A stretch of DNA of 64,000 nt from Fistulifera solaris (lineage: Eukaryota), in the NCBI GenBank assembly GCA_030295235.1, contig AP026145.1, positions 868,001-932,000 of the forward strand, read 5' to 3'. Positions within the stretch are counted from its first letter, which is position 1. Each line of letters begins with the position of its first letter. Shown here piece after piece: positions 2,840 to 59,160 of the stretch. The position numbers and the translations under genes were made by a program. Under the pieces are notes generated by a model. That model saw only the letters and a program-made list of their open reading frames with translations. It ran no database searches and was not told where the DNA came from.

Positions 2840-3163
2840 GCTTTTCTGATTGGAATGTTGTTAAGTCACGAGTGTAAATGGCGAAGATTCATTTTTAGGC
2901 CATTTTCCCAGATGGATCTACTCTTTCCTTTATTCAAGGCCCTTATGTTCATTCATTCGCTTCGCTTTTGGCGTTCGAACTACCTTTCCTACGAAGAACC
3001 GTCTGTCATCATACCGTGGTCGCCAGTCACAAGACACAACACACAACCGAACAGAATGAAATGCGAACCTTGAAGACATTCGTTGCCTTGTTGAGAATCC
3101 TTTCCTTCCCTTCTTCCGTTTATAAAAAAAGCCAACACGCATTTAAAACAAACAACAACAACA

Positions 3164-5422
3164 ATGAAAGCAGACGATTTTATGAAACTGGACGCCATCT
3201 TCGCTCCCCGCAGCATAGCGGTCGTTGGAGCCAGCTCGCAAGAAGGAAAAGTCGGAAATGCGATCTTTTCCAACTTATTGCACGGTCATTTCAACGGCGT
3301 GCTGTACCCCGTCAATCCTTCCGCCAATCACATCATGTGCGTCAAAGCGTACAGCAGTATTCTGGACATTCAGGATGTAGTCGATTTGGCGATGATCATC
3401 TTGCCTCCGCAGCGAGCCTTAAAGACGGTGCAAGACGCTCTGGAAAAAGGTGTCAAGGGGATTGTGATCGTCTCCGCAGGCTTTCGCGAAGTCGGACCGG
3501 AAGGACGTGCCTTGGAAGATCAAATCGTCGCACTGTGTCATGCGGCTGGCGTGCCGGTGGTCGGACCGAACTGTCTGGGTGTTATCAATCCTAAACACAG
3601 CATGAACGCTTCCTTCTCGACGCGATTGCCGAAAGCCGGAAACATCTCCTTCATCAGTCAGAGCGGTGCTCTGTGCACGGCCGTCTTGGACTTTGCGGCC
3701 GACCGGGATTTTGGATTTTCGAAATTTATTAGTATCGGAAACAAAGCCGATGTGGATGAACTCGACCTGTTGCGTTATCTCCATCAAGATCGAGATACGG
3801 AAGTAATTATGATCTATTTGGAAGAATTGCGCCGGGGCGGGCTGGAGTTTATCGAAACGGTTAAACAGATCACGACATACAGTGATCATCCGACACCCAT
3901 TCTCGTCATCAAGTCGGGCAGAACTAGTGCCGGCGCTCTGGCAGCGTCGAGTCATACGGGTGCTATAGCTGGGTCTGAAGCCGTGTACGACTCTATCTTT
4001 GAGCAAGTAAGTATTACAACTGCAATATATCCGTTATTCGTCACGAATCAAGCTTTCCTTACATGGTTTCAATTTATTGTCTTCTAGGCTGGTATGATTC
4101 GAGTGGACAGCATAAATGATCTTTTTGATTTCGCTTCCTGCTTTACCATGAAAGACAGCCAAGGCCGCCGTAAAGTCCCTGCTGGTAACAAAGTGGCCAT
4201 TGTCACCAACGCCGGTGGACCTGGTATTGTTGCCACTGACATGACGATATCCTCGGGCTTGGAACTAGCAACACTGAACGAAGAAACGGTGGAAACGTTG
4301 AAATCGCATCTTCCGGCGACGGCCAATTTTCACAATCCTGTCGACGTGATTGGTGATGCCGGCTCCGATCGTTACGAGAACGCTTTAACAGCGGTGATTC
4401 ATGACAACAATGTGGATGGAGCTATTGTCATCTTGACCCCTCAAAGCATGACAAATGTCTTGGAAACGGCCAAAAGTGTCGTGAGAATCAAACAGCGCAC
4501 CACGAAACCGATTCTTTGTGTGTTTATGGGGATACTGGACGTCAGTGCCGGAGTCAAATACTTACAAGAGCATGGAGTTCCTGTCTTTAAGTTTCCAGAA
4601 AGTGCTGCGCGAGCCTTCGGAGCGCTTTCATATTATGCCAAGTGGCTAGAACGACAGCACCTGGCACAGTTTCCGTTGAAACACGACGAAGCGAAGGCCA
4701 GAGAAATCATTGAATCTTGTCTGGCACGCGGTCAAACCTATTTGGGTGAAATCGATGGTTTGGATCTATTACGATGCTATGGATTCCCAGTACTAGAAAC
4801 CAAGTTGGCCACAACTGCAATCGAAGCCGCCGATCTCGCGGAAGCCATGGGATTTCCAGCTGTCCTCAAAATTGTATCTCCTCAAATCATTCACAAGAGT
4901 GATGCTGGAGGTGTTATGATCAAGCTGAAAAGTCGCGAAGAAGTTATGGCTGGTTTCGAAGAGATTATCGCTAATGCCAAAAGTACGATGAAAACGCTGA
5001 TATCAAGGGGTTGCCTGGTCACCACAATGGCTCCGAAAGGGCGTGAGGTCATTCTCGGCGCGAATCGCTATCCTGTATTTGGTCCACTGATTATGTTTGG
5101 ATTTGGAGGTATCTTTGTCGAAGTTTTCAAAGACGTGGCGTTCCGTTTGGCACCCATTAAACGAAATGAAGCACGTCGTATGATGCACAAGATCAAGGCC
5201 TATCATCTCTTGAAAGAGTTTCGCGGTATCCCTGCTTCCGACACTGAGACTTTGGAAAAGTTACTTGTATCATTGTCGGACATGGTGACAAATCATCCTG
5301 AGATTCAGGAGCTGGATATCAATCCGCTCATGGTACATGGAGTGGGTCAGGGAGCAACCGTTGCGGACTGTCGAATTATCCTGAAAGCACTGGAACAAAA
5401 TGCACAAATCTCAAGATTGTAA
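3164..5422 (+). CDS. ADP-forming acetyl-CoA synthetase (acetate-CoA ligase, fused alpha-beta); intron 4007-4087
   Basis: Motifs SIAVVGAS, VVGPNCLG, ISQSGA, SHTGAIAG (phospho-His), NPVDVIGDA, IIHKSDAGGV and ELDINPL. An 81-nt GTAAGT...TTCTAG intron joins the two ORFs in frame. Confidence 0.93.
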
Positions 5423-28563: not shown

Positions 28564-31500
28564 TTATTTTTTCGATTGCAAGCGATTCCGAATATCACAA
28601 TGCATGTTTGTCAAAAGGCCACGTAATCCTTTTCTCCCACATTGGCATCTTCGACCAACAAACTTAAAATGCCCGTTTCCCGCAATCCTTGATGATCGGG
28701 TTGTTGGAAGACGGGAATGATGGCTGGACTTGTGGAACGTGGACTCTTTCGGATGACATGCGACAACCAATGCTCCAACAGTTCGTGACGACGACGGGCA
28801 CACCGTTCTTTCGTGTCCTCGGGAACAAGGCGACCCAAGTATAGAAAAATTCGCAAACCATCGTCAATCAAATAAATGCCATCGTCTTGAAAGGATTCCA
28901 TCGTAGGACGCACCAGCGGTGGCATATCTTGGTTGTTGTCTGGCGAATTCAAATCGATGGAATAGATATTCGGATACAAGAGTGACATACAAGTACAAGG
29001 GTTGCTTTGGAGGAGCTGGAAATTGAAATAGCCTCGTTCGTCCCCCGATGGTTGGATACGAGTACCCCCGGTGGCCGGATCGCGGCAGGGAAACCCCGGG
29101 GCCAGCAGCGGCAATTTGATGAGACACATGCAAAAAAGCGGGAGAAGTTGTAAGCTTGATGGAAGCAATAATTGGCCGGTGGGGCTGGATATCGCCGGAG
29201 TGTTCAGTCGGTAATTGACCAGCATGTTCAAGCAAGTGGCGTACAATGCATCGCGCGCTTTTTGGCGGGGTATCAGTTTGTCGTCCTTCTTTTGTTCGTT
29301 GATGGTTTTGATTAAATGCGCGTGCGTCGTGCGCACGAGATAGGGAAGAATGGCGGCAAAATCGGCGCCTTGGAATACATCGTTGGCCGATTTCGCGATA
29401 GGAATGGCCAAAGTGGATACGCGAACCAATCGTCGACCCGACAAAGAGGTATACAATAATGCTGTTTGAAAGTATACCGTCGAACTAGATTTCGGAAGCC
29501 CGCCAACGCGGTGATCCAGTTCCACCGATATGCATGTATTGGGAGACAATGAAGCCAATTCGAGTTCCGGTGAATCACCAAGGGCGCCTTCTCGCGACTT
29601 GCCTGGAGCGTAAACGAAATTCTTAATTTGTACACCAGCCGAACAACGAACTTTGAAGACTGCATCCCAACCAGAGAATGCCCGAATGTTGCTTCGTAAA
29701 TCGTTGTAAAGCGATTCTTCCCATTGCATTGCCTGTACCCAGTAAAGGCGTCCACTCGTAACTCGACACAGTTCACCCATTGAAGCAAGTCCTAAAAAGC
29801 TATTAACGCTCACCGACCCTGTATGCATGACAATATCCAAGGTCACTCGATTTGTGACGCATTCTTCGGCCAGTTTGGAATAAAACAATGCGGCAGTTTC
29901 ATCTTCATTTCCTTCTGGCTTCTTTTGACTTTGCACTGGTACATAGGTCAACGTGTTCTCGGCTCTAGATCGTCCCAATAGCAACGCCTGACTTTCTTCC
30001 CTATACGCCAAGCTACCCACTCCGAAATTCGGTCTTCGCCAAGTCAAAAGCGTTCCTCGTCCTCCGGATGAGGCCAAGGCGTTGGAAAGAAACGCCAGGG
30101 CAGCTCCGCCACAGCTTAACTCTGATCCATCTAATCCATACGCATTTCGTGCAAACGATTCCTTTCGCCATTGTTTCAAATTCAGATTGTCTAGGAGCTG
30201 GCACCATGCGTCAGCAGACTCGTTCATCACAAACGTCCAGTCCTCCAATGGTGCGGGTGTAAAGGGTCTTCTGTTACGTCCGCAACCACCATACATGATA
30301 TTTCACCACTGGAAGCATTCCACCGAGGGATCATAATGCCCATGGAAGAGACGAGACATAAACCAATGCGCGGCGCCGCCCCGGAAGCTTGCTGCTGATA
30401 ATGATCCGTCATATCTTGTCCTAATTGCTGCAACATGGATTTGTATGCTTCCACGTGAGGAGATGTCAAATCCAAGACGTACAATTGCACCGGCTGTACG
30501 GGAGTAGGACGTGTGATGTAAGGACCGGTCACTTCCCATTCCACCGTGGCTTCCGGACGTGCCGTGACGAGAGCCTGCGTTTGGCCCACACCGCAAAAGA
30601 TGCATTTGTGATCTGTCGCAAATGGATTCGCGTAGGCCAAACAGTTCGTACATCGAGGAGGTGCATTGGTAATCGGGAGCATGGGTACCGACGCGTTCGT
30701 CTCTTCAATTTCTTCCGGCAAAGACGCTACAAAGTCTTGTGACGGCACTGCCAATGGCACGCACTGCAAAGCCAACGGTATATCGCCCGTACTATGCCAT
30801 TGCGCACGACTGGCGGGAAATTGATACACGGTACTGCGCAATACGTGCGGCGCCGCATTCCCATCGTCCATGAGGGTCGCTGATAATTGCAACGGTGGGG
30901 GCTGTCCCATTTGCGCCCGCGGATAGTATGGCGATGATGATGGAGTTGACAGGGGACGTGGAATCAAAGACACGTCAATGCTGTCGTTGTAGGGTATCGG
31001 TGGTGGGGGCGGACCTCGAGCATGAGACGGAGGATATGCGTGACTCTGCGAGGAAGGATACATATTCGGGGTGGACGTAGAAGGTGGGTACATTTGACTT
31101 GGAGGTGCTGGAGGAGGCACGTAAGAGGGAGGATGCATTGGCATTTGACTGTGTGAGGACTGCGGATACATGTTTCCTTGCGGCGGGGGAGCCATGCGAC
31201 TCTGTGGAGGAGGCGGATGTTGATGAAACGATTGTGAAACAGGAGGATTGCTCTGGGCGTTAAAAGGAGGAGGAGGAGGCACGTGACTCGGTAGAGGACG
31301 TGGTTGCATCTGACTGGGTTGAGAAACAGGAGGATTGCCCTGGGCACCAAAAGGAGAAGGAGAAGGCAAATGATTCTGTGAAGGAGGCGGTTGCATCTGG
31401 TTCGGTTGCAAGACAGGAGGAGGCACAGGCATCGGACTCGGTTGCGAAACTGGAGGAGGCGCATAACTCTGTTGTAAAGAATCTGTAGGCCCCGGAGTTG

Positions 31501-32017
31501 GTTGACCAGAAGGGCCGTGCACACTTAAAGGAGGCACATGACTTTGTGAGGGAACCATCGGACTCGATTGCGAAAGCGACATAGAATGGTGAGCTACAGG
31601 GGGTATCTGGCTCTGGGAAGGAGGAAGATTCGGCAGATTGTGCGATGGTGGCGAAAATGACACCGGGGCATGCTGCGGCCTCGTGGATGTTTCGGTAGAC
31701 TCAAGCGACGGCGGAGCTGAAAATGTCGTCGGCGGTCTCACTGGAGGAGGCGGCATTATTTTGTGTGCTCCGGTGCTACCTCCTGACATGGGAGGAGGCG
31801 GAGGAAGAAACCGAGCATTTTGTGCTATAGAAGCAACTCCGTTGACAGGTTGCGTCAGTTGTGAAGTCATCGGCTGCTGCTGCTGCTGCAGCTGCGGTTG
31901 CGGAGGAGGAGGAGCCGTAAATCGAGGAGCGCTGGGAACTGTAGATTGCGGATACTGTTGCGCTTTGTGCCCGTTATTTCCGGGCGGTGGAGGCGGAGGA
32001 AGCGGAAATGAAGGCAT
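28564..32017 (-). CDS. SEC24: COPII coat subunit Sec24; frameshifts near 30255 and 28615
   Basis: Pro-rich N-terminus, DDGNAAPHVLRST, zinc finger PPRCTNCLAYANPF..CIFCG, DAVFKVRCSAG, YFQTALLYTSLSGRRLVRVSTL and GQLLLPSSLQLLPL. Confidence 0.93.
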
Positions 32018-32554
32018 TTTATTTTCTCTTTTCTTCTATTCGTACACAGTAATAATCCGTTAGTTCGCGGATCGTTTACAATCGAGTATTTCTTGTTTGT
32101 CAAATGAGCTTAAAAATAATGGGTATCAGATAACGCTTTTCCTTTAGTTATCGGCTTGTTGAGGAGCGTTATATTTTGGACGACACCATGGTCGACGCAA
32201 AGTCGAAATGCGCGCATGCCGCGGATCATTGCGTCGCCAGAAATTGCTGTCGCACTAAACGTGACACAAGAAAAAACAAGACCCCTTTCTGCTTACGTCA
32301 GAAGGTGTACTTCACGAGGCTATACAATGTATTCAGTCCCAGGTCGCTACGGTTTTCTACATCGATCGTCGCATGCGAAAAAATTGTTTTCGGTGTTTCC
32401 TCTTGCGATGGATTTATCGGTACCGTACCTTATTGGTACCTTACGCTCGTTGATCGACATTTCTATACATACTCGCTATTCATTTCACTCCATTACGGCA
32501 GTTCGCAAACTGGAGTTTCGCTCTGAATCTCACACTCCGTCATTGTTTCTCGCC

Positions 32555-33715
32555 ATGATACTATCTAATCAATTCATTTACGTATTAGCGCTACAGAATA
32601 GTAAATATTATGTTGGCTGCACGAATGATGTGGCACGCCGATTCCAAGAACACCAAAACGGTCAAGGATCCGCGTGGACCCGATTGTATCCTCCTTTACA
32701 AATCCAGCAACAATATGCTGTTCCACCCGACAAACATCCTGGACTGGAAGAAGATGCACAAGTGAAGTCGATGATGTTGCAGCATGGTATCGATCATGTC
32801 CGTGGAGGATCGTATTCGAATGTCCATTTAACGTCGACGCAGACGGCCATGTTGGAAAAGACGATTCGCCACGCCGAGTCGGTATGCTTTCGATGCGGGC
32901 AACAAAATCATTTTGCCAATCAATGTGACTCACAAACGATGGTGGGTTCACTTTCAACAACAAAGACTTTTCATGTTCATGGCGCCTCCCATAATCGACT
33001 GGTCCAAGATCAAACGTTGAGGCACTGTGAGCGCTGTGGTCGCAACAATCACACCGCTGATCGTTGTTTCGCCACATTTGATGTTAGAGGCGTTCGAATA
33101 GCTACCCAACACCATAGAGCAGTTTCTGAGCCACAGGAGCAAATGGTGTGTGAACGCTGTGGCCGAAACACTCACACAGTGGATCAGTGTTTCGCCCTTT
33201 CGGATATTCACGGTGTATTGTTGAGGGACGAGCAGCGTGGATCGACGAGTGTCAAGCCCTCTAATGAAGATTTGTCGAAATGTTCGTGCGAACGCTGCGG
33301 GAGAAATACTCACGACACGAATGATTGCAAAGCCATTTTGGATCTCAATGGATCACTTCTCGTGTCCGATACGTTGCGATCTGTGAAAGTGAATAGCGGG
33401 GATCCGAGGAGACGACCAACGTGTGAACGTTGTGGCAGAAACACCCATGCCGCCAAGCAGTGTCATTCAGTTTTTGATATCAATGGCATTTTGATTGATG
33501 ATCCTAGCTCGAGAACTGCCGTAACATCTCTGGAGAATAGTTACGAGCCGATGACGACCACATTCCCCATCGAAACAGACGATGATGCAAGTAGATACAT
33601 CCCCGTTCAACTTTGTTACAAGTTGTTGACAACCGGCAAATGTTTTTGTCAACTGGGCTGCGGATTCAACTCTCTAAAAAGCTTGACTACCAGCAGCGAG
33701 AGCCGAACGAGTTGA
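32555..33715 (+). CDS. GIY-YIG nuclease with five CCHC zinc knuckles and a degenerate CCCH finger (array copy 1)
   Basis: FIYVLALQNSKYYVGCT..RRFQEHQNGQGSAWT..LEED..GIDHVRGGSYS, five Cx2Cx4Hx4C motifs, and a C-terminal Cx8Cx5C lacking the His. Confidence 0.88.
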   Translation: MILSNQFIYVLALQNSKYYVGCTNDVARRFQEHQNGQGSAWTRLYPPLQIQQQYAVPPDKHPGLEEDAQVKSMMLQHGIDHVRGGSYSNVHLTSTQTAMLEKTIRHAESVCFRCGQQNHFANQCDSQTMVGSLSTTKTFHVHGASHNRLVQDQTLRHCERCGRNNHTADRCFATFDVRGVRIATQHHRAVSEPQEQMVCERCGRNTHTVDQCFALSDIHGVLLRDEQRGSTSVKPSNEDLSKCSCERCGRNTHDTNDCKAILDLNGSLLVSDTLRSVKVNSGDPRRRPTCERCGRNTHAAKQCHSVFDINGILIDDPSSRTAVTSLENSYEPMTTTFPIETDDDASRYIPVQLCYKLLTTGKCFCQLGCGFNSLKSLTTSSESRTS

Positions 33716-34576
33716 GGTACGCTGTATTGGGTTGTGAAAAACACCCCAGAGTTACCGTGGACACAACAAACACTCGTCGAGACATGACACAACCGGCGAG
33801 CCATCTTTTGAAATAGAATCACCGCTGATTGTTATTACAAATGGCCTTCACCGTCCGGCGCGGACGCTGATCTATCCTTCGTTGCCATTCAATCAATATC
33901 ATACCATCGCTCCAGAGATTAAAGCAGCCTTTGACGAAGATGCGCATGTCAATAATCCGTTAGCCGAGATCGATGTATAATCATTAATAGAGGAGCTTCC
34001 TTATTGCGTTGCAGTGTGTTCGGCAGTAGATGTTAATCGACCGTCAAGATACTATAGTGACGATTGATTGTCTCGTCGTAAACTAGCAACGCACGAACTT
34101 GATAAAGACCTTTTCCGCAAGTCTTTCCCCTTCTTTCTTGTCAAAAGGTCGATTTACTTGACTCTCTTTTGACTCGTTTATTGCTCTTTCATTTTCACTT
34201 CATCGTTCATCGTATCCTTTGGCCGTTAACCATCGATCGAAGCTGTATACCTCTGTCGCACCGGTGTCTCGTAACTTCCAAATCCGATTACTTGTAGCGA
34301 ACATTATGGCAACGATCAATGCCTCTATGTCCAACTCTAGAGAGTAGCTAGAAAGACAGAAAGACCCTTCGACAGTACATGGGATATAAGTTATCACTCT
34401 TATGATGGTTATGGCGCTTTCTCGCTTCATCGCCTTGACCCTTGCTTCACCAGTGAAAGCGAGAAAAGAAACTGTTTTACGCGATACTCCGTAATCAGTT
34501 TTCACACTTTCAACCGTTTCTCATTCACTTCCGTCAGGAATCATCGGAATCCATTCAGTTTAGGCAGACCGTGTTA

Positions 34577-36592
34577 ATGGCACCTGACAACAATCCGTTC
34601 ATTTATGTTTTGTTACTCCAACAAGGAAACTATTACGTGGGAAGCTCGAAGAATGTTGAGCGCCGCTTCCGAGATCATCAAAATGGACAGGGATCGGCAT
34701 GGACCCGCTTGTATCCCCCTCTTTCCATAGAATATTCCTACGCAGCCGGACGACACCCCGGTCTGGAAGAAGATATGCAAGTCAAGTTGTTAATGTTGGA
34801 ACATGGAATCGATCGCGTCCGGGGTGGTTCCTATTCCAACATTCAACTGACTGCTCAACAAAGAGAAGAACTACAGCGTGCGCTTCGGCATGCCAGGGGA
34901 GCTTGTTTGCGGTGTGGTCGTACAGGTCACTATGCGCATCAATGCAACGCCGCGAGGGAAAGTGATTCACTCAGCAGAAGAAATACTCGCCGTCAAGAAA
35001 GTGTAGCCGCAAACAGGGATAACCATGCTTATTCCATCTCCTACGAGCATTGGACGGGCATTACTGGCGTAGTAGGATTTAACGGAGGGCGTACATCATC
35101 GGACCGATCCTCCGTTTTTGTGGCTTTAAAATGGGCATTGCCTCGTTGGTTAGCGGGAGGAGAGGAGGGAGACCCAAGCACTGCCATTTCTGCAGTGAAT
35201 CGAGCCACAGACCATCTCAATGTGAATTTGTCCTGCAGACGTTGTGGCAGAGACAACCATACAACAGACAGGTGTCATGCCGCAAGTGCCATCGATGGAT
35301 CTAGCTTGCAGCCCGAACAAATATCACCAACAGCTTCATCGAGGGCGTGTCCCACAGGGGAGGAACCGATCGCAAGATATGTCCCACGCGCCAGCGATGT
35401 GCACTCCTATGATGGCGAATGTCAGGAAATTCAAATAATTGATGCGGAACCTTCACTTACTAATGTAGCACAAACAACAAGACGTTACGTCGAATCCGTC
35501 ATACGAAACCAAAATTTGAGCGTTCAAAGCTGTCGTGACTTTTTAAACCAGGGCCAGTGTCCCCGTGGGCCGAGTTGCACTTTTTCCCATGCCGTACAAT
35601 TGCTCGGAAGCGTCAAAGTCACAAAGAAAGCACCGGTTTCTTCCATTGCCGTATGGCCGGGTCAAGAAAGAAAACTATTCACCGGAACCGCCGATGGGTG
35701 TTGGCGTCTCTGGAAGACGAACAGTAACGGAAACTTTCAACAGATATTCGAAGGAAACATGTCCGGAGAGATCCTTTGCCTGGCGGTGAACAAGCAGTGC
35801 TTTGCTTGTGGCTTTCAACGGCAACTATCTTCGTCCATATCGAAAGGAATGATTCACATCTGGAATTTAGAATCGACCGGCGATCCGCCTTTGGAGTTGC
35901 ATATGATTCCCCGAAAGTCCCCATTTGCTCACGAAAGCTGTGTAAGCTGCATGTTTGTTGATACAACAATGGAAATAGCTTCCGGTTCAGACGATGGGAA
36001 AATCCACATGTGGGCTTTTGACTCCTCCGTTCGATCGTATAGACTTGGTCAACAAATTCAAGCTGGAGCCAAAGTTACTGCCCTGGTTCTAATGATGCAA
36101 CAAGACTTACTTTGGAGTGGTTGTGATGATGGTTCGATTCAAGTATGGAAGGTTCGCTCGGGTCAATGTCAATATCGTATTCCTGCCGGAATCACAGGAC
36201 ACTCTAGTGCCATAACGTCGCTTCAGCTCATTCGAGCCCCAAAAGGTTTGTTCATTGGTAGTGCCTCACTCGATGGCACAATCAAAGCATGGGATTGCCT
36301 CACCGGCGTTGGAGTCATCGCCAAAAACATATCGACTCCCATTCACTGCATGACGATCGGCGAAAGTAGCGAGGGATATCCACTTGTGTTACTAGGAATG
36401 AGCGACGGTTCCATTCAATGCCGCAATCTGTTATCCACATCGAACTTGTCAGCACTGGATCTCGTCTTTACTGTACCCACACAAGGGGCGGCGGTCCATG
36501 CAATCGCAAGCGGGTCGAGAGGCTCCTTTTTCAGTGGCGATGCAAACGGCATAGTGCATGCGTGGCAGATAAAAGAATTGCATCTTTCTTGA
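34577..36592 (+). CDS. GIY-YIG nuclease + two CCHC knuckles + CCCH finger + WD40 repeats (array copy 2)
   Basis: FIYVLLLQQGNYYVGSS..RRFRDH..VRGGSYS; CLRCGRTGHYAHQC; CRRCGRDNHTTDRC; CRDFLNQGQCPRGPSCTFSH; WD repeats (SGSDDGKIHMW, SGCDDGSIQVW, SASLDGTIKAWD). Confidence 0.88.
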   Translation: MAPDNNPFIYVLLLQQGNYYVGSSKNVERRFRDHQNGQGSAWTRLYPPLSIEYSYAAGRHPGLEEDMQVKLLMLEHGIDRVRGGSYSNIQLTAQQREELQRALRHARGACLRCGRTGHYAHQCNAARESDSLSRRNTRRQESVAANRDNHAYSISYEHWTGITGVVGFNGGRTSSDRSSVFVALKWALPRWLAGGEEGDPSTAISAVNRATDHLNVNLSCRRCGRDNHTTDRCHAASAIDGSSLQPEQISPTASSRACPTGEEPIARYVPRASDVHSYDGECQEIQIIDAEPSLTNVAQTTRRYVESVIRNQNLSVQSCRDFLNQGQCPRGPSCTFSHAVQLLGSVKVTKKAPVSSIAVWPGQERKLFTGTADGCWRLWKTNSNGNFQQIFEGNMSGEILCLAVNKQCFACGFQRQLSSSISKGMIHIWNLESTGDPPLELHMIPRKSPFAHESCVSCMFVDTTMEIASGSDDGKIHMWAFDSSVRSYRLGQQIQAGAKVTALVLMMQQDLLWSGCDDGSIQVWKVRSGQCQYRIPAGITGHSSAITSLQLIRAPKGLFIGSASLDGTIKAWDCLTGVGVIAKNISTPIHCMTIGESSEGYPLVLLGMSDGSIQCRNLLSTSNLSALDLVFTVPTQGAAVHAIASGSRGSFFSGDANGIVHAWQIKELHLS

Positions 36593-36604
36593 GCGATTGA
36601 ACGG

Positions 36605-36650
36605 GAGTCATTTCGCCAGTGAATGCTTTGCAAAAACGGAGATAATTGGC
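36605..36650 (+). pseudogene. Relic fragment of a further GIY-YIG/knuckle gene copy
   Basis: 36605-36643 matches 37335-37373 at 37 of 39 nt and encodes SHFASECFAKTEI. Confidence 0.7.
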
Positions 36651-36996
36651 ACTTAACACGCCGTAGGGTCACTTCTCCTGCGCCACGAAGTTATTCTTGA
36701 ACCTCGATTCAAGTTTATGAAAAGAATATAGTACGCGTCGACCAAGGGACTTCGCAATAGTTCCCCCAGCCCAGCAGGGAGGTCCACAACAGCAACGTCA
36801 TGCTTAACCCCGTGTAGATCAAAGCCCGATGATGCGTCGGCATAATGACCGTATCAGTTAAGTGATCCTTTTTCGTGAAGCGGAGCATAATGTCGACGGA
36901 GAAGAATTGTTGTCTTGTTGATTCTCCATATTCATCTCATCTCATTAATTTCATGTTCCCAACAAAGCAACTTAATTTTTCGACGAAGAAAGGGCG

Positions 36997-37791
36997 ATGG
37001 AATACATTTATGTGCGGGCCTTGCAAGACGACAAGTACTATGTTGGTTGTTCGAGCGATGTGATTCGTCGATACAAGCAACACCAAAAAGGCCAAGGCTC
37101 CTCTTGGACACAACTTTATCCTCCCGTCGATCTTCAGAGCCTACACGAAGTTGCACCAGGAAGACTTCCAGGATTCGAAGAAGATGCGCAAGTCAAGTCC
37201 TTGATGCTGATATATGGGATTGATCGCGTGCGTGGAGGCTCCTACTCGAATGTGGAGCTGACGGAAGCACAACTGGCCGAACTGAAACAAGCATTGCGAC
37301 ATGCCAAGTCAGCTTGTTACCGTTGCGGCCGAACGAGTCATTTTGCGAGTGAATGCTTTGCAAAAACGGAGATCGTTGGTTCCTCCAGCTCTACAGAATC
37401 CTAGGAGCAAGTTCCACTCGCCACGACCAGTCGCTACAATCTTCGACCAAGGATGCCGGCTTGCAAACGTTGCGGCCGAAACAGTCATACCGCAGAAAGT
37501 TGTTACGCCAGCTATAAGGTTAACGGTGTACGCGTTGCGGTAGAAATGGCCCCGGCTGCCAAACTCGTCGCCGAGGAACGAAACCGCCATTCTCCCAAAG
37601 AGATATGCGAGCGTTGTTGTCGCAACACGCACACGATCGAGTTGTGCTACGCTTCTCGTCATTTAAATGGTTCCATACTCCCCAAGGCACTGGCTAGAGC
37701 CTTCCAAAGTAGACAAGACCCGAGGAAGTTTGGTGATTTCGACATCAACGAATTGTTTAGCCAGATGAAAGTGAAATATTCGGAGAAATGA
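36997..37791 (+). CDS. GIY-YIG nuclease + CCHC knuckles (array copy 3), split by an in-frame TAG at 37402-37404
   Basis: YIYVRALQDDKYYVGCS..RRYKQH..VRGGSYS and CYRCGRTSHFASEC. ORF 37453-37791 is in the same frame and has two more knuckles. Confidence 0.8.
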
Positions 37792-38554
37792 GTTGCACAG
37801 TTTTGGATTTGACGCCGACGCGCCACTCGAAACCGATTTGCTTTCAAAGTAAGAAAAAAGCCCGACAGTCAATTCATCAAAATGATAAGCCAAAGACAAC
37901 CACAGCCGTCAAATTCCCCTTTTTCTTTGAACTTTGAGGAAAAAGCTCTACAGCGATCTCCTTACTAGACTGTCTATAAAAGCCATTGCATGCGTTTCTC
38001 GAACTGCTCGAGTGTTCCCTTGATGATCACGTAACTTCTCCTCTTCGTGACAAGATGCGTGATAGTGACGAGATGCATGAAAATAAGAGCATTGTCTCGT
38101 CGCCGTCGTCGATCGCGTGTTGTTTCGTTTTTCCGTCTCCGGGTCGCCTGCACTCGAGGAGTCGTCGATCTGTCTGTCCGGTACTAAACTTGTCAGTCTT
38201 GGTTATGGATCTTGGACATTTGAAGTGTAACATAAACTGTAGTTAAAGATATCGCAACAGCCAACAGCATAATCGCAATAGAAACAGGCGTAGCATTTTA
38301 CTACTGAAGTTCATTCACGGTCAGAAACCCTTATGTAGTGAATGTACGGAAGTGTAGAATTTCATTCCATCATTCCGTTCTGCGAGAAACTCGCACCAGC
38401 AAATTTCAAACCGACGACGACGTTGGTTGCGTGTCGTGCATAAAACGCAACAGAAGGCTCCCGGATATTTCTTTCACATTTCCGGGAAGCCGTTCATGTA
38501 TCCTTGCTTTGATTTCCTCCAGACCTCGCACGACGAAGAAGAAGCAACGCAACG

Positions 38555-39778: not shown

Positions 39779-40177
39779 TTAATGTGCTTCGAGTTGGGAG
39801 TGTGCGTTCAAATTTTGCTCCTCAGCTTGACGTTTTCGCTGCCTTCGCTGAAACCCAATGGAATGCGTTTGTGCCATATATTTGTACGCATCGATGGTAC
39901 TCCAATCGAGTATTTGTTCTAGGGTAAACGAGCCACGACTTTCAACTGCCTTCCTTCGTTCTCGAGCATGATGCATGCGATTCAATTCAAAATCGTCCAC
40001 CGAACACGTCAAAATCCATTCGACTTGATCGGTTTCGTGCACATGTTTGACCTGAACTCGACCAAAGGAGACTGATGAACGACCACCATCGTCCGAAACA
40101 GAGCTCTCGTCGCTTGAGGCATCTCGGAATGTCGGAGAATCGTGGCAATGTGTTATCGGAGAGAATAAGAAGAACAT
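39779..40177 (-). CDS. Small hypothetical protein, tandem paralogue 1 (VSFGRV..KHVHETDQV)
   Basis: Shares VSFGRVxxKHVHETDQVxWxLxCSVDDxELNxMHHARERRKA and AYKxMAQTxS with 40813-41265. Confidence 0.75.
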   Translation of the reverse strand: MFFLFSPITHCHDSPTFRDASSDESSVSDDGGRSSVSFGRVQVKHVHETDQVEWILTCSVDDFELNRMHHARERRKAVESRGSFTLEQILDWSTIDAYKYMAQTHSIGFQRRQRKRQAEEQNLNAHSQLEAH

Positions 40178-40812: not shown

Positions 40813-41265
40813 TCAGGAAGCGTTGAGAAACCACAAGAACGACTCCTTCTTAGCGTTCTCTTGCATCTTCTTTTGTTCTAGCCGCCGGCGTCGCTTCTCT
40901 TCAAAGACTAGTGAGTTTGTTTGGGCCATGAATTTGTATGCCTCAACAGAGCTCAGCTCAGGAAATTGCTCCATCGTCAGTGTCCCTCGATTCACCTCAA
41001 TGGCGGCTTTCCTCCTTTCTCGTGCGTGATGCATCTTATTCAACTCGTAATCATCAACTGAGCACGACAGCAACCAGTCGACTTGATCGGTTTCGTGTAC
41101 ATGCTTTATGTAAACTCGACCAAAAGAGACTACGGTAGAATTGCTATTGGAAAGCGAACAGTCCTCGCTTGTCGACGACGACTCGGTGTCATCATGGCTG
41201 TCGTCCAGTTTGGTCGGATAGAAGATGAGATCTCGCAACGAAGACGACCTGAGCAAACGAAGCAT
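40813..41265 (-). CDS. Small hypothetical protein, tandem paralogue 2
   Basis: Same conserved block as 39779-40177. The start is uncertain because the ORF extends to 41391. Confidence 0.75.
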   Translation of the reverse strand: MLRLLRSSSLRDLIFYPTKLDDSHDDTESSSTSEDCSLSNSNSTVVSFGRVYIKHVHETDQVDWLLSCSVDDYELNKMHHARERRKAAIEVNRGTLTMEQFPELSSVEAYKFMAQTNSLVFEEKRRRRLEQKKMQENAKKESFLWFLNAS

Positions 41266-49226: not shown

Positions 49227-49825
49227 GTTTGACAGAAACAGAGGAAGAAGAGAAGAAAGAGTGAAGACGAATGCAATGGCGTTTGTCGAGGACCAACTTA
49301 CTTTGTATTGTGCGACAACAAAAAGATGAAAAAAAAAGCGGCGTTCTCGTAATTTGGTCTGGCTTTTTCACGTCAGTCACGAGCCGTCTACGTCCTTGGT
49401 TCATGTGACATCATCATTAGCACGATGCGACACTGGAATATTTTGCGTCATTGAAAATGGTCCTATTTCCTATTTACTCAGCATTTCGTAAGACATCGCT
49501 TCGTTTAATTGTATAGTACATAGTACCACTACAAACAAATCAAATGGGGATTTCTGGCTAATTCTATTTTTTTCGATATTGTTCCGTAGGTCATTGAGGA
49601 CTTATTGGGACTTTCGTACGCTGGACAAATTTGTACTAGAAAATTCCATAATCACAGATCATGTATCATGTATCATGTACGTAGTATCATGTGCCTTCCA
49701 GTTTTGCGCACCACAGCAAAGTGCAAAGAAAAGAACGAAAACATGACACATCATTCGAATGAGACGAAAGGCTTATGATTCACACGATTGTTCTAATAGA
49801 AGCTTTTCCATTATTCGATAAAGCA

Positions 49826-51506
49826 ATGAGAAAAATGAAGAGATCTGTTGGTCTTCTTATTGTTGTTTCCGCGGCTGTTTTGGCGCCTACGAGTGCACAA
49901 TGCATTAGTATTGGTAAGTTTTGTCCAAAAGTCCTCACCATTTATTCTCGCAAGTCCACGTTTCCTCACACAAAATATTCATTGACAGTCGATTTTATAT
50001 GCCGTGTCAGTACGCTATCTATGCTTTGCGCTTCTGTAACGCAAGTAGGCATCGGAACACAACTGAATAGTGGAAATTGGACTGTTTTTGCGCCGACAAA
50101 CAACGCTTTTTTCAGACTTGGCGACCGACTTGGAGTGGTACTTGGAAATCCTGACGTTCTTGCGGGTGTAATATCATATCATACGGTTGAAGGAATCGTC
50201 AACGCGGAGGATTTGACTTGCTCAGGATCGTTAGAAATGGCAAACGGGCAGACAAGTAGAACGGAATGTCGAAGCGATTCTATCTATCAAAAAGGACAGG
50301 GGAATGGGTTGGGTGCGATGCCTCAAGTGGTAGCCAGTAACATCAATACCTGTTCCGGAGTGGTACATATGGTGGATGAAGTACTTTTACCCGCTGAACT
50401 TGGTCCTGAATCTCAGATACCAGCTGGCTGTAAATCCATTGGTACGTATCTTGCGTTTTCAGCGAAAACGAGTTATGACAAGTGCTTTATCTAAACGAAC
50501 ACTGTCTTCATCAAAATCAGCTGATATTGTATGCGAATCGAGTTTGTTTTCAACGCTGTGCACAGCAATCACACAAGCTGGTTTACGGGAGGCTTTAAGT
50601 GGAGGATCCTGGACGATATTCGCTCCGACGAACGATGCTTTTGCAAGACTTGGAAATACGCTCACGACAGCTCTAGCGGACAATACGCTTTTAACAGATA
50701 TTTTACTCACACATGCGATTGAAAGCGTCATTTACTCGAATTCTTTGGAGTGCGGTGGCACTTTAACCATGGCAAACAGTCAACAAACATCAACAGTATG
50801 TCACGCTGATTCAATCTTTCAAGTCGCCAACGGAAACGAAGCCTCATCGTTGCCCCAAATTGAATTATCTATTTACGCCTGCAATGGTGTACTGCATCTG
50901 GTAAGCAATGTCCTTTTGCCGAGTGTAAACGAATCAGAAGAAGCGCCGATGACATTCCCGATAGTTGCTCCCATGCAAGCACCGGTCGGAGAATGTCGAT
51001 CTATCGGTACGTAGTATTCGTCGTCGTTGCAGAAACTTTTTGCTAGATCACTTGCTGATGACTCATATTGACATTATCTTTGTTGTACAGTCGAAATAGC
51101 ATGCAGCACAGAGAACCTTTCCACTCTTTGCTCTGCTGTGACACAAGCCGACCTGGTAGGGACTCTGAGCGAAGGGTCTTATACCATTTTCGCTCCAACT
51201 AATATTGCGTTCTCGAATTTGGGAGCCACACTCGACACTGTTTTAGCCGACAACAATCTCCTAACCGACATATTACTCTACCATTTGGTTGAAGGCGCCG
51301 TTTACTCGACGGATCTAGTATGCGATAGCGAGGTGGTAATGGCCAATGGTCAAACGAGTCGCACCTTTTGTGAGAACGACGATATTTTTCTAGCGGGTCA
51401 AGGCAACGAAGCAACCGCATTACCTTTGGTCGTTCTTGTGGATCTTGCGGCTTGTAATAACAGTGTGCTACATGCTGTAGATGAAGTCATTCTTCCAATG
51501 TTGTAA
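49826..51506 (+). CDS. Secreted fasciclin protein with three FAS1 domains; introns 49914-49988, 50442-50520 and 51007-51090
   Basis: Signal peptide and three repeats of T[VI]FAPTN.AF ... H.V..V[LI]LP, joined by phase-1 GT-AG introns. Confidence 0.9.
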
Positions 51507-56258: not shown

Positions 56259-56730
56259 ATAGAATAAATAGTATTTGCATATTCTAGTTGTAGAAATGAG
56301 CGCAATGATACTTGCAATGATGGACGAAATAGAACGGAGCAATGCGCAAGAAATCGGGAAGAAATAATGTGAAGGTAATTGAGTCTTTCCTCGAGTAAGG
56401 TTCGAGTGTTGGACGTAATGAAGGTCAGACAGTCTTTTCGTGTCTTCGCGTCGCGGTCGTTCGTACTCTATTCGTATAATTATGGATTGGGTCTATCGAC
56501 TATATCGTTAGAGTGTATCTTAAATGACCTTTGAAATGCCCCAAACAGTCATTATTCTTTGTTTCTTGCCGCAAAGAGCCACAAAACCGCAAACGCCAAA
56601 AGTGCAATAGAACGAAAGAGCAACAAAAGCACAACTAAAGACTCTTTCTTATTTTCCTCTCCTTTATTCATTCATTCGTTGCCAATTATTGTTAGTCTTT
56701 GATTGACGGGCGATCGCAAACACAGCAAAC

Positions 56731-59160
56731 ATGAAATGGCTTATCGTATGGAGTTTTCTCTTGCAACAAACGGTCCTAGCGCAAACTTCGGGCGGTGCTA
56801 CGTTGGATTTCGCGGCTCCTGTCAACACGACGGCTCCTTCGATTGTTCCTTCGATTGCTCCTTCGAGTTCTCCGAATGCGACAGTAACTCCGCCGGCTAC
56901 AACACCTGTTACGACACCGGTTACACCTCCAGCTACACCGCCGACTACTGCGGAAGAAGAACTAACGAACGCCCCTTCAGCGGCGTTTATGAATGTATCT
57001 CATCCGAACGCTGGAGGCATGACGAATACGGACGGACAAACCTTTGAAGGCATGACATTGCGTGAATTGATCATTTCACGAGAAGAGTTGACCCTCTTTC
57101 GAGACTTTTTGGATCAAGCCGGACTGCTCGAAACAATCTTGGATGATACGACCCAACAATTGACCGTCTTTGCTCCTGACAATCACGCCATGGAGAACAA
57201 TCGCAACATTCAACTTTATAGTCAAGGCATGGACGAAACACCGCCACGATGGTATCACACCATTTTATCGACGTGTCAGAATCACATGGCCGAAAGTCAA
57301 ATCCTCAATTTTGATCAAATCTTTGATCAAGTCCGGACCGAAATCACTTCCATGCACGATACGTGGCCCGTCAGTCAATTCACACTCCAAGTGGGCGGCG
57401 TCGAAATTGAAACGGCCAATCTGGTCGCGTCCAATGGGATTCTGCACGTCACGCGGGGCGTCATTGCGCCGCAATTCTATTCGCAGACCTTTGCGCAACT
57501 TGAATTGCAAGAAGAATTCGGTCCCGATCATTTGAACCGCATCAGTATGGTCGATGTCGTCGATAACATTCCCGGTGCCCGACAATTGTTGGCGACGTCT
57601 CGGGATACCGGTTTGACCTATGCGGGGTGTCGCATCCGTGCGTTTAACCGCATGGGTCTCGATTATTTGCCCCAAACCATCAATGGCGGACAGTTTGTCA
57701 AGGAAAATGAACTCATGAATGCCTCCTTTGCGGAACAATCCCTCCACAACTTTGTCGAATATCAACTCATTCCGCACAATTACTATCTGCCGGACATTGA
57801 AGAAAACTTTGAACAGCTCGTGATGCCCATCAACAAATGCAGTCACATTTGGATCACCAACCGCGTCGGCAAATTGTGTTTCAATGATGCTTGCATTGTC
57901 CGGACGCCCGATCCCCGTTGGTTTTTGGCGAGTAACGGTGTCGGCTACGTCTTGGACAAGTGCATCATTTGTTCCGGCATTGCCATGTTGACCGATTATG
58001 CCGCCGAATTTTCCAGTCTTAATACAAAAGACGCGGCGCAGTTGTTTTGGGGTACGGAATGGAATTTGCGCAATTTGAGTCTTTCGGTGGGCGATGGGGG
58101 TCCATTGACCATGTTTGCGTCCATCAATACCGGCTTTAACTTTTTTACGCTGGAAGACACGACGCGGTTGAGTACCGACAAGTGGCGTCGGCATTTGTGG
58201 GATCTGGCATCGCATTTCTTGACGCAAGGCAAATATACCCGCGATCATTTGATCAATATCACCAAGACCAATGGCGGGGCATGGAATTTGACCATGTTGA
58301 CGGGCGAAAATGTAACGATTGACTTTGACGAAAGTAGGAATATGGTGTTAGTCGATGGCGGTGATTTGTTTATGCATGATATGCAAGGACAAGATGGGTA
58401 CGTTTTTTGGAGTGATCGTGTGTTGGTACATGGTGGAATAAGAACGAATGCTGACACATCAATATCTTTGTATTTTTTCAGATTACTTCATTTTACCACT
58501 GAAGTACCACAGCCACGATCCGTGACGAGGAACTGCTTCACAATTGTCGAAGACGATCCTGATGAACGATTCAAACTGCATTTAGGATACTTGACGTCTC
58601 TCTTTTTGGAAGAAGACGTCAAACGGTTGCTACCTCTCACTGTCTTTTATGCCCCCAACGAAGCCTGGGAAGGCAAAATGGTTGATTTAATGGAGCTGTC
58701 GGAAACGGTTCTGGAAAACATGATCTTCAAAGAACTTTTGTGGTGTGAACTTTTGGTCGAAATGGCCAACACCAGGCAACCCATTGAAAGTCACAATGGT
58801 CAACTATGGAACGTAGTGGTGAACGAAGAGGGTTTCCCTTGCATCAAGACAATACAACAACTGAATGAAACCCATTCCATGGATGCTTGCATCACAAAAT
58901 GCGACATACTGGCACGAAACGGTATTGTTCACGAAGTCGATTCGCTGATAGTGTACCAAAGCTTGGATACACTCGCTCCGTTCCCACCGGTAGCGCCCTT
59001 TGCCCCGTCAGCTCCATCACCGCTCTTCGAACAGCCCATCCAACGTGACAACATGACAGCTCCTACTTTGGCACCCAGTTCGAAAGCGTGGCGATCAACA
59101 ACGTCGTCGTGGGGAGTGGTATCGTCTCTCCTAGCCGCTATGTGGTGCTATCTCCTTTAG
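56731..59160 (+). CDS. Secreted, probably GPI-anchored multi-fasciclin protein; likely in-frame intron 58398-58481
   Basis: Signal peptide, Pro/Thr-rich stalk, FAS1 motifs (LTVFAPDN, ASNGILHV, DILARNGIVHEVD) and a hydrophobic C-terminus. Confidence 0.88.
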   Translation: MKWLIVWSFLLQQTVLAQTSGGATLDFAAPVNTTAPSIVPSIAPSSSPNATVTPPATTPVTTPVTPPATPPTTAEEELTNAPSAAFMNVSHPNAGGMTNTDGQTFEGMTLRELIISREELTLFRDFLDQAGLLETILDDTTQQLTVFAPDNHAMENNRNIQLYSQGMDETPPRWYHTILSTCQNHMAESQILNFDQIFDQVRTEITSMHDTWPVSQFTLQVGGVEIETANLVASNGILHVTRGVIAPQFYSQTFAQLELQEEFGPDHLNRISMVDVVDNIPGARQLLATSRDTGLTYAGCRIRAFNRMGLDYLPQTINGGQFVKENELMNASFAEQSLHNFVEYQLIPHNYYLPDIEENFEQLVMPINKCSHIWITNRVGKLCFNDACIVRTPDPRWFLASNGVGYVLDKCIICSGIAMLTDYAAEFSSLNTKDAAQLFWGTEWNLRNLSLSVGDGGPLTMFASINTGFNFFTLEDTTRLSTDKWRRHLWDLASHFLTQGKYTRDHLINITKTNGGAWNLTMLTGENVTIDFDESRNMVLVDGGDLFMHDMQGQDGYVFWSDRVLVHGGIRTNADTSISLYFFRLLHFTTEVPQPRSVTRNCFTIVEDDPDERFKLHLGYLTSLFLEEDVKRLLPLTVFYAPNEAWEGKMVDLMELSETVLENMIFKELLWCELLVEMANTRQPIESHNGQLWNVVVNEEGFPCIKTIQQLNETHSMDACITKCDILARNGIVHEVDSLIVYQSLDTLAPFPPVAPFAPSAPSPLFEQPIQRDNMTAPTLAPSSKAWRSTTSSWGVVSSLLAAMWCYLL

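Follow-up and report, generated by a model that had tools for sequence, protein, structure and literature searches.

Three neighbouring GIY-YIG nuclease genes with CCHC zinc knuckles in the alga Fistulifera solaris, and their relatives in giant viruses

The three genes and their common module

We analysed a stretch of 64,000 nucleotides (nt) from the genome of Fistulifera solaris (assembly GCA_030295235.1, contig AP026145.1, positions 868,001 to 932,000 of the forward strand; hereafter the window, whose own numbering is used throughout), and within it a cluster of three predicted nuclease genes, A, B and C, at 32555-37791. The three open reading frames (ORFs) lie in the same orientation on the + strand and share an N-terminal module, in which a GIY-YIG core is followed by a VRGGSYS extension and, adjoining it in every case, by a CCHC zinc knuckle. 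As seen in the alignments, the residues IYV, YYVG, RR..H, (L/F)EED and GID.VRGGSYS are kept alike in A, B and C, and, with tyrosine, tyrosine, arginine, histidine and glutamate all present, the core appears to be catalytically intact in each of them. A sequence-only reading of the same DNA had earlier described these genes with their coordinates and strand, their shared residues and the make-up of their tails, and every item of that description was confirmed; its remark that the genes are apparently intronless is consistent with the uninterrupted frames. The features of the locus are as follows.

32555-33715, + strand: gene A, 386 amino acids (aa), GIY-YIG core and VRGGSYS extension, stop codon at 33713-33715; family hidden Markov model (HMM) E 1.2e-60
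32885-32926, + strand: gene A, knuckle 1
33026-33067, 33149-33190, 33287-33328 and 33422-33463, + strand: gene A, four class-2 knuckles
33614-33673, + strand: gene A, probable degenerate CCCH finger, C-x8-C-x5-C-x3-S, serine replacing histidine
33858-33968, + strand: psi-1, probable relic of another GIY-YIG copy, with the core segment YPP...(F)DEDA.V
34577-36592, + strand: gene B, 671 aa, GIY-YIG core and extension; family HMM E 1.9e-57
34904-34945, + strand: gene B, knuckle 1
35234-35275, + strand: gene B, knuckle 2
35531-35590, + strand: gene B, true CCCH finger, C-x8-C-x5-C-x3-H; zf-CCCH 27.5 bits, cut-off 20.5
about 35660-36580, + strand: gene B, WD40 propeller; Pfam WD40 66 bits, cut-off 27
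36605-36649, + strand: psi-2, relic, a 45-nt copy of the 3' half of gene C knuckle 1
36997-37404, + strand: gene C as it reads, 135 aa, core, extension and knuckle 1, ending at TAG 37402-37404; family HMM E 2.7e-56
37315-37356, + strand: gene C, knuckle 1
37405-37791, + strand: in-frame continuation of gene C, 128 stop-free codons and then TGA 37789-37791
37462-37503 and 37606-37647, + strand: two intact class-2 knuckles in the continuation of gene C

Strict knuckles of the form C-x2-C-x4-H-x4-C number five in gene A, two in gene B (followed by the CCCH finger and the WD40 propeller) and one in gene C before the TAG, with two more after it, in agreement with the earlier counts. They fall into two classes, namely the first knuckle of each gene and the added ones (class 2), which follow the unit C.RCGRN.HT...C.A.....G; the recurring unit pointed out in the sequence-only reading is a class separate from the first knuckle. 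The Pfam model for GIY-YIG (PF01541) scored 28.8 bits in A, 30.9 in B and 22.6 in C with a cut-off of 22.6, which places C exactly at it, and in the window genes its match spans just the first half of the domain. The Pfam model zf-CCHC_5 (PF00098/PF14787 knuckle class) gave 95.5 bits in gene A and further scores of 28.8, 27.8 and 28.3 bits, its cut-off being 27. For the giant-virus-type GIY-YIG-CCHC family there is no curated model, and no model or family for the GIY-YIG-CCHC module was found in NCBIfam and PHROGs; we defined the family by an alignment (A2) that runs through the core, G(I/V)D.VRGGSY, a helix and the CCHC knuckle. When the family HMM was run against the six-frame translation of the window, exactly three full domains were found, with E values of 1e-56 to 1e-60, far beyond chance; no fourth full copy was noticed in the six frames, the remaining matches being knuckle fragments.

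The frame of gene A is open from 32216 and the domain begins at the ATG at 32555, so that the true start may be either. Behind its five knuckles the sequence-only reading had seen a 'broken CCCH'. The spacing is indeed that of gene B, with serine for the histidine, but the segment is without a Pfam match, and its local alignment to the CCCH finger of gene B gave a score of 36 that was matched by 20 of 1000 shuffles, which makes the assignment probable and not certain. In a search with gene A no identical protein of 212-676 aa came up, while for gene B there is a near-identical public entry, P0004; in the public annotation gene A may be missing or modelled differently.

The tail of gene B, compared with solved structures, matched WD40 propellers at up to E 1.6e-33. 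The propeller is thus a generic one by search, and the term 'sensor' that had been attached to it is an interpretation. In one word-indexed search of a 5.8-billion-protein collection, the architecture GIY-YIG-CCHC-CCCH-WD40 was met in two protein clusters only: P0004, which is gene B itself with 3 of 671 residues changed, and P0002, which is identical to gene B at 559 of 671 residues (83%) and of the same length throughout. By segment, the identity between gene B and P0002 is 79% in the core, 75-78% in the knuckles, 73-75% in the linkers, 85% in the CCCH finger and 90% in the WD40 propeller. Beyond these two clusters, the CCCH-WD40 tail matched generic WD40 proteins at 24-32% identity. Pfam scans of 65 of the 150 best matches to the nuclease domain, all four proteins of at least 500 aa among them, showed no WD40 fusion, and a tblastn search downstream of A or C for WD40 relics, with the tail of gene B as query, gave nothing better than E 0.37. 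Because P0002, its only close relative, preserves the fusion over its entire length, we consider gene B to be a working host gene.

The TAG of gene C sits in a linker, and the alignment of A with C continues across it. Since the 128 codons behind the TAG are open, we argue that the stop is recent. The same TAG stands in a contig of sequencing run X1, a run that may itself have been the source of the window; contigs of three runs were compared with the locus, and one of these contigs spans the whole stretch with every letter unchanged. Removal of the TAG by an intron is unlikely: the 40 shortest of the 50 frame-keeping GT..AG candidates were without a good donor or polypyrimidine acceptor, and those among them that would spare the knuckles are all 33 nt long. 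Further on, at 37854 in the non-coding stretch past gene C, contigs of runs X1 and X3 are one base short compared with the window.

Two fragments lie between the genes. In local alignments with the YPP...EEDAQV segment of these genes psi-1 scored 57 to A and 58 to C, each matched by 0 of 300 shuffles, and the other seven frame-by-gene tests were at chance; a 28-nt stretch of it (repeat family D3) is 82% identical to gene C. The family HMM gave no match to psi-1 in the six-frame scan, which counts against its being a relic. The second fragment, psi-2 (repeat families D5/D4), starts 13 nt past the stop of gene B and is 91% identical to 37335-37379; a weaker similarity extends over about 100 nt, and its translation is interrupted by stops. 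Psi-1, psi-2 and the stop in gene C show birth and death of genes at this locus, and the tandem expansion with gain and loss that had been proposed is borne out by three genes, two relics and one premature stop.

Nuclease core and its structural relatives

In an alignment of 33 family sequences Y10, Y20, H34, E65, R82-G83-G84 and C110 were invariant, and R30 was kept in at least 90%. An AlphaFold2 model of residues 1-130 of gene B (mean predicted local distance difference test (pLDDT) 94.1, predicted template-modelling score (pTM) 0.83, knuckle blocks 93 and 80) places in order two strands, two helices, a strand, a long helix bearing the glutamate, the short VRG strand, a helix and the knuckle. 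The three-stranded sheet with flanking helices that characterises the GIY-YIG fold was found in the model and by VIA-align, where the Z scores are middling (4.0-7.0) and the list is consistent. Among 48,161 chains, eight of the nine best were GIY-YIG-type domains, judged by their titles: I-TevI at Z 7.0, the N-terminal domain of a plant Grx at 5.9, PD-T4-3 at 5.3, At-HIGLE at 5.1, Slx1 at 5.0 and 4.4, UvrC at 5.0 and T4 EndoII at 4.0. Foldseek, run with the gene B model against the PDB, gave no match at E<=0.001.

Searched against solved structures, a profile built from 33 members of the family matched the UPF0213 proteins BH0048 (1zg2) at E 2.9e-11 and EF2693 (1ywl) at E 1.3e-8, and in the BH0048 alignment KGGPY pairs with the VRGGSY of the family. 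The matches to SLX1 (E 0.19-0.55), T4 EndoII (E 0.14) and I-TevI (E 0.46) were not significant. The nearest solved relatives of the module are the bacterial UPF0213 proteins, and its sequence points to a GIY-YIG endonuclease of the UPF0213/SLX1-like branch with one active site. The UPF0213 (COG2827) proteins share RR..H..G.G..(Y/W)T with the family, and BH0048 also shares (K/R)GG.Y. They are likewise uncharacterised, single-domain proteins of about 95 aa without a zinc knuckle, whereas the window proteins have extra domains; the Foldseek match to UPF0213 is weak (E 9e-3) and on a nuclear magnetic resonance model.

SLX1 and the plant HIGLE (Z 5.0-5.1) also place a zinc-binding domain behind a GIY-YIG core of the same branch. 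The zinc module of SLX1 is a RING/PHD-type finger, and the enzyme works with SLX4. The modules of the window genes, on the other hand, are CCHC knuckles, Pfam found no RING/PHD finger in them, and the SLX1 chains stayed at the insignificant E values given above and at Z 4.4-5.1. The genes are therefore not SLX1 orthologues, an identity which the sequence-only reading had named as one that would speak against its proposal. I-TevI has the same fold and is the best structural match, with a root-mean-square deviation of 2.9 over 76 residues, but the window genes are without its linker and sequence-specific DNA-binding domain and without an intron. An I-TevI-type homing enzyme was likewise rejected, as the model TIGR01453, whose cut-off is 56.05 bits, reached only 17.9 and 19.3 and gave no match for C, and Rfam found no intron RNA in the window.

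Carriers, age and constraint of the family

The family is large. Using residues 1-110 of gene B as query, a HMMER search of 1.84 billion representatives returned 6063 proteins at E<=0.001 and 2078 at E<=1e-10, and most of the 150 representatives listed have near-full query coverage and about 40-56% identity; a profile search of 90%-identity clusters returned 3440 at E<=1e-10. At least one strict knuckle is present in 135 of the 150 best representatives, with a range of 0 to 6 per protein, and Pfam CCHC families were seen in 47 of the 65 representatives scanned. The 'swappable' knuckle tail of the sequence-only reading is real in that the number of knuckles varies, but this is a trait of the whole family and not special to the locus. 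Other fusions or repeats were also noticed: in P0029 (289 aa) a DnaG-type CHC2 zinc ribbon precedes the nuclease, and P0009-P0011 match the nuclease domain in 2-4 stretches of a single protein.

The likeness to giant-virus proteins, which the sequence-only reading had given from recall, proved to be real and strong in the Atlas, IMG/VR and BFVD. The nearest Atlas clusters are 67-100% viral, mostly Nucleocytoviricota. In alignment-based scans of IMG/VR, relatives were encoded by 518 of 572 and 436 of 541 pattern matches, many on contigs of 100-570 kb, and their identity to the window genes was 38-52%; a scan of IMG/VR with a single protein query found none of these. Similar results were obtained with metagenomes, where a scan with gene B as query returned no relatives and the alignment-based scan found them in 356 of 504 matches, the best 80 at 35-50% identity; nothing in it was more than 50% identical to the window clade. 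The 16 best fold matches in BFVD (TMq 0.74-0.87, E 1e-10 to 1e-13) are named giant-virus proteins, among them proteins of Klosneuvirus, Yasminevirus, Terrestrivirus and Orpheovirus and Marseillevirus-like proteins.

These giant-virus proteins (Orpheovirus, Klosneuvirus, Yasminevirus, Terrestrivirus, Edafosvirus and Marseillevirus LCMAC, by their BFVD names), which bear titles such as 'GIY-YIG nuclease (with zinc finger domain)' or 'CCHC-type domain-containing', have the same core, VRGGSYS, helix and adjoining CCHC knuckle as the window proteins, with TMq 0.76-0.87, 30-38% identity and E of about 1e-12 to 1e-13 for the 11 best. Their C-terminal knuckle is of the class-2 type with the C(Y)A.....G tail, as in the window genes, and their genes are often clustered, as here. 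The viral ORFs have a median length of 204 aa and exactly two knuckles in 66 of 90, with a C2H2-like finger between them in the ORFs inspected. The window genes, by contrast, have one to five knuckles without a C2H2-like finger and form a separate clade, and the CCCH finger and WD40 propeller of gene B occur in no viral copy examined. Two or three copies of the gene lie within about 12 kb in 9 of 80 viral loci. We examined five viral loci, three of which have virion or core-enzyme genes:

L062, 391-4285: major capsid protein of a nucleocytoplasmic large DNA virus (NCLDV) on the locus; three family copies around a PIF1 helicase gene, two of them GIY-YIG ORFs and the third seen by Pfam only as a knuckle ORF
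L023: RNA polymerase Rpb2
L005, 2782-6612: topoisomerase II and P8 minor capsid protein; homologue beside a TET/JBP oxygenase and its glycosyltransferase
L001, 4535-9572: no virion or core-enzyme gene; homologue beside an Eco47II-like restriction enzyme and a C5 methylase
L044, 4918-6615: no virion or core-enzyme gene; homologue beside an HNH endonuclease

In the giant-virus contigs L001, L044, L005 and L062 the homologues adjoin other DNA-cutting or DNA-modifying genes. We did not find any description of the GIY-YIG-CCHC family in the literature searched, where papers that pair GIY-YIG with 'zinc knuckle' or 'CCHC' concern, by title and abstract, other proteins.

To place the window genes among these relatives we used two trees, a 243-row FastTree and an unrooted 40-row IQ-TREE that includes 11 viral rows. 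A, B and C form one clade with P0001, P0002 and P0003 (support 99 in FastTree and 98/93 in IQ-TREE), within which IQ-TREE joins A, C and P0001 (95/80) and places P0003 with B and P0002 (95/79). All 11 viral rows fall on the opposite side of the IQ-TREE from this clade, and in the FastTree the nearest 91 tips are without any IMG/VR sequence; a search of IMG/VR with those nearest neighbours found nothing above 53% identity. The nearest neighbours in the tree carry 2-5 class-2 knuckles.

The identity of A, B and C at third codon positions is 0.33-0.45, and the synonymous divergence (dS) is saturated beyond computing. Since the synonymous sites are saturated, the paralogues are old, and saturation combined with intact catalytic residues implies long-term constraint. 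The nonsynonymous divergence (dN) of the core among A, B and C is 0.28-0.34; between A and C it is 0.55 in the tail and 0.28 in the core, a difference of about twofold. The view that a conserved nuclease carries a fast-changing tail holds for this pair, but between gene B and P0002 the WD40 part is more conserved than the nuclease.

Surroundings of the cluster and its possible function

Thirty of the 52 ORFs of at least 180 aa in the window were scanned with Pfam. Domains were found in 17 of the 30, all of them cellular, and 13 had no match; the neighbours include acetyl-CoA synthetase-like, CMAS methyltransferase, ABC1 kinase, SpoU methylase, subtilase, Sec23/24, fasciclin, ApaG, amino-acid transporter and PGK proteins. 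No transposon gene, viral hallmark gene or other known defence gene was seen among the ORFs scanned, and the earlier statement that no reverse transcriptase or transposase lies next to the cluster held for them. The guanine-plus-cytosine (GC) content at the genes is 0.46-0.48, like the rest of the window. Between 26000 and 44000 no transposon structure was noticed, that is, no inverted repeats of at least 40 nt and no flanking direct or long repeats, and scans of the window with Rfam (0 matches, no intron RNA) and for tRNAs gave nothing.

Some features of these surroundings are recorded here in their own right. On the + strand at 3095-5419 a TAG at 4085-4087 interrupts an ADP-forming acetyl-CoA synthetase-like gene, leaving two ORFs in one frame; within 4019-4087 this TAG closes a pyrimidine-rich stretch ending in AG, which looks like an intron of about 55 nt and not like a broken gene. 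The genes of the window, together with an intron-like segment, mark the DNA as eukaryotic. Directly upstream of gene A, a Sec23/24-family gene on the - strand (28611-32035) contains at 31182-31355 two tandem 87-nt units that are 74% identical; they lie in its proline- and glutamine-rich N-terminal half, and both GC content (0.54) and GC skew (0.18) peak there. Three fasciclin-domain ORFs within 10 kb, at 49763-51011 and 56707-59157, form another local gene family. At 39948-40073 and 41006-41131, among ORFs without a Pfam match, stand the two copies of a 126-nt direct repeat, 1058 nt apart and 79% identical.

Two other groups of eukaryotic proteins combine a GIY-YIG domain with zinc-binding motifs. 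PMC8557442 and PMC6431247 describe the endonuclease of Penelope-like elements and the stand-alone GIY-YIG nucleases of Terminons as having Cys/His zinc-finger-like motifs. They differ from the window genes in being fused to or associated with a reverse transcriptase and in carrying motifs (CX2-5CxxC, CCHH) that are placed elsewhere and are not CCHC. A Penelope-like endonuclease was rejected for the cluster, no reverse transcriptase domain having been found in A, B, C or the ORFs scanned. Unlike the knuckles of the window genes, the repeated zinc-binding modules of the plant EFFECTOR OF TRANSCRIPTION (ET) factors are of a different, plant-specific kind; that these factors combine GIY-YIG with a variable number of such modules is reported in PMC6585611.

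On balance we favour, as reasonably probable, the reading that the cluster is a resident chromosomal set of old paralogues belonging to a large uncharacterised nuclease family that is common to eukaryotic algae and giant viruses. It builds on what the data show, namely the anatomy of the genes, the family they belong to, their fold and distribution, how old the paralogues are and how well gene B is conserved. The substrate, the role of the knuckles and the WD40 propeller, and the biological process served are inferred. Given its catalytic residues and its fold, the protein is predicted to be a metal-dependent endonuclease with one active site; in the model, the family-invariant VRGG strand, the next helix and knuckle 1 sit with the core in a single rigid unit. 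CCHC knuckles bind single-stranded nucleic acid. Because of this property, the catalytic set, the fold and the rigid knuckle unit, cutting at single-stranded or branched DNA would be expected: the enzyme may nick or cut DNA at such regions, with knuckle 1 and the variable string of class-2 knuckles holding the unpaired strand and extra knuckles adding grip. SLX1, which likewise pairs such a core with a zinc domain, would be the mechanistic analogy. In gene B the most likely task of the CCCH finger and the WD40 propeller would be to anchor the nuclease on RNA or on a partner protein. Gene C would have been trimmed by its nonsense codon to a minimal core with one knuckle, a form common elsewhere in the family, and the two fragments between the genes would be the remains of lost copies.

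Several points weigh against this reading. A search of sequencing runs for the stretch of A, B and C gave no match on record as RNA, and the literature searched holds no biochemical data on any family member. That DNA is the preferred substrate is argued solely by analogy, from the GIY-YIG family at large and from CCHC knuckles. RNA is the usual ligand of CCCH fingers, so gene B may have an RNA-linked role. The relics and the stop in gene C could also be those of a selfish gene family in decay. In both Atlas look-ups every cluster listed bears a viral label, bar a few labelled archaeal. Finally, as the IQ-TREE is unrooted and 26 of its 40 rows are without an organism name, 'host clade' means merely 'not among the viral contigs sampled'.

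The strongest of the alternatives, which we nevertheless regard as unlikely, is that of a conflict system, in which the cluster would be an antiviral or anti-transposon nuclease array, its knuckle, CCCH and WD40 tails fast-evolving recognition or sensor modules and the viral homologues captured weapons or decoys. Such a role would suit a family common to hosts and giant viruses, in which the number of knuckles varies and whose members here stand in tandem, with copies gained and lost, and it would suit the doubled tail dN between A and C. It would also suit the presence of restriction-modification genes (L001) or an HNH nuclease gene (L044) beside the homologues in two of the five viral loci examined. 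On the other hand, the paralogues are ancient and under purifying selection, the supposed sensor of gene B is its most conserved part (90%), and no further known defence gene stands among the ORFs scanned. A defence role, as proposed in the sequence-only reading, is possible but drew no support from any test run, the paralogues being ancient and not recently expanded.

Next, and doubtful in our view, comes the explanation that these are selfish nuclease genes, free-standing and homing-endonuclease-like, which spread and decay in the genomes of giant viruses and hosts and bring no host benefit, except perhaps a domesticated gene B. In giant viruses the GIY-YIG family is reported in PMC11334073 to have undergone 232 duplications and 38 virus-to-virus transfers, and it is treated there as selfish, which favours such an origin here. 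The viral loci with two or three close copies, the two relics and the nonsense codon in the window, and I-TevI as the best structural match point the same way. However, the intact catalytic residues beside saturated synonymous sites mean long-term constraint, no association with introns or inteins and no sequence-specific DNA-binding domain was found (the TIGR01453 scores being far below the cut-off), and all copies stand at one locus among host genes, with no other in the 64 kb.

A bolder proposal, which we rate as improbable at present, is that the family serves eukaryotic innate immunity against giant viruses. Host copies would cut single-stranded or branched intermediates of viral replication, the knuckle strings would diversify for grip on the target, the WD40 propeller of gene B would act as a trigger or docking sensor, and the viral copies would be captured counter-weapons or decoys. 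WD40 modules serve as trigger or docking sensors in other immune receptors.

An origin from an integrated giant-virus genome, of which only these three genes would survive, is very unlikely. Viral proteins are indeed the closest relatives that bear a name or label, but none of the 30 ORFs scanned in the window is a viral hallmark gene, the GC content is uniform, the window clade stands apart from the sampled viral sequences (best identity 38-52%), and the architecture is unlike the viral form of knuckle, C2H2-like finger and knuckle. An ordinary repair nuclease, orthologous to SLX1 or another housekeeping GIY-YIG enzyme, is disfavoured to the point of being hardly credible, for although the core belongs to the branch of SLX1 and UPF0213 and a zinc module follows the nuclease as in SLX1, the SLX1 chains match poorly, a RING/PHD finger was not found by Pfam, and there are three divergent paralogues and not one conserved gene.

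The GIY-YIG-CCHC module is among the larger protein families without experimental characterisation, with thousands of clusters, and it is abundant in the giant viruses of protists. The locus offers a cellular set of three natural variants, one minimal, one with many knuckles and one fused to WD40, and if the host alga can be cultured and genetically manipulated, this set would be experimentally tractable. Should the innate-immunity proposal be true, the genes would be among the first protist defence nuclease families traced on both sides of the arms race between hosts and giant viruses. The substrate, once worked out, would give a function to many giant-virus genes. It would also reveal whether the enzyme is a weapon between hosts and giant viruses or serves both sides in one and the same replication or repair task.

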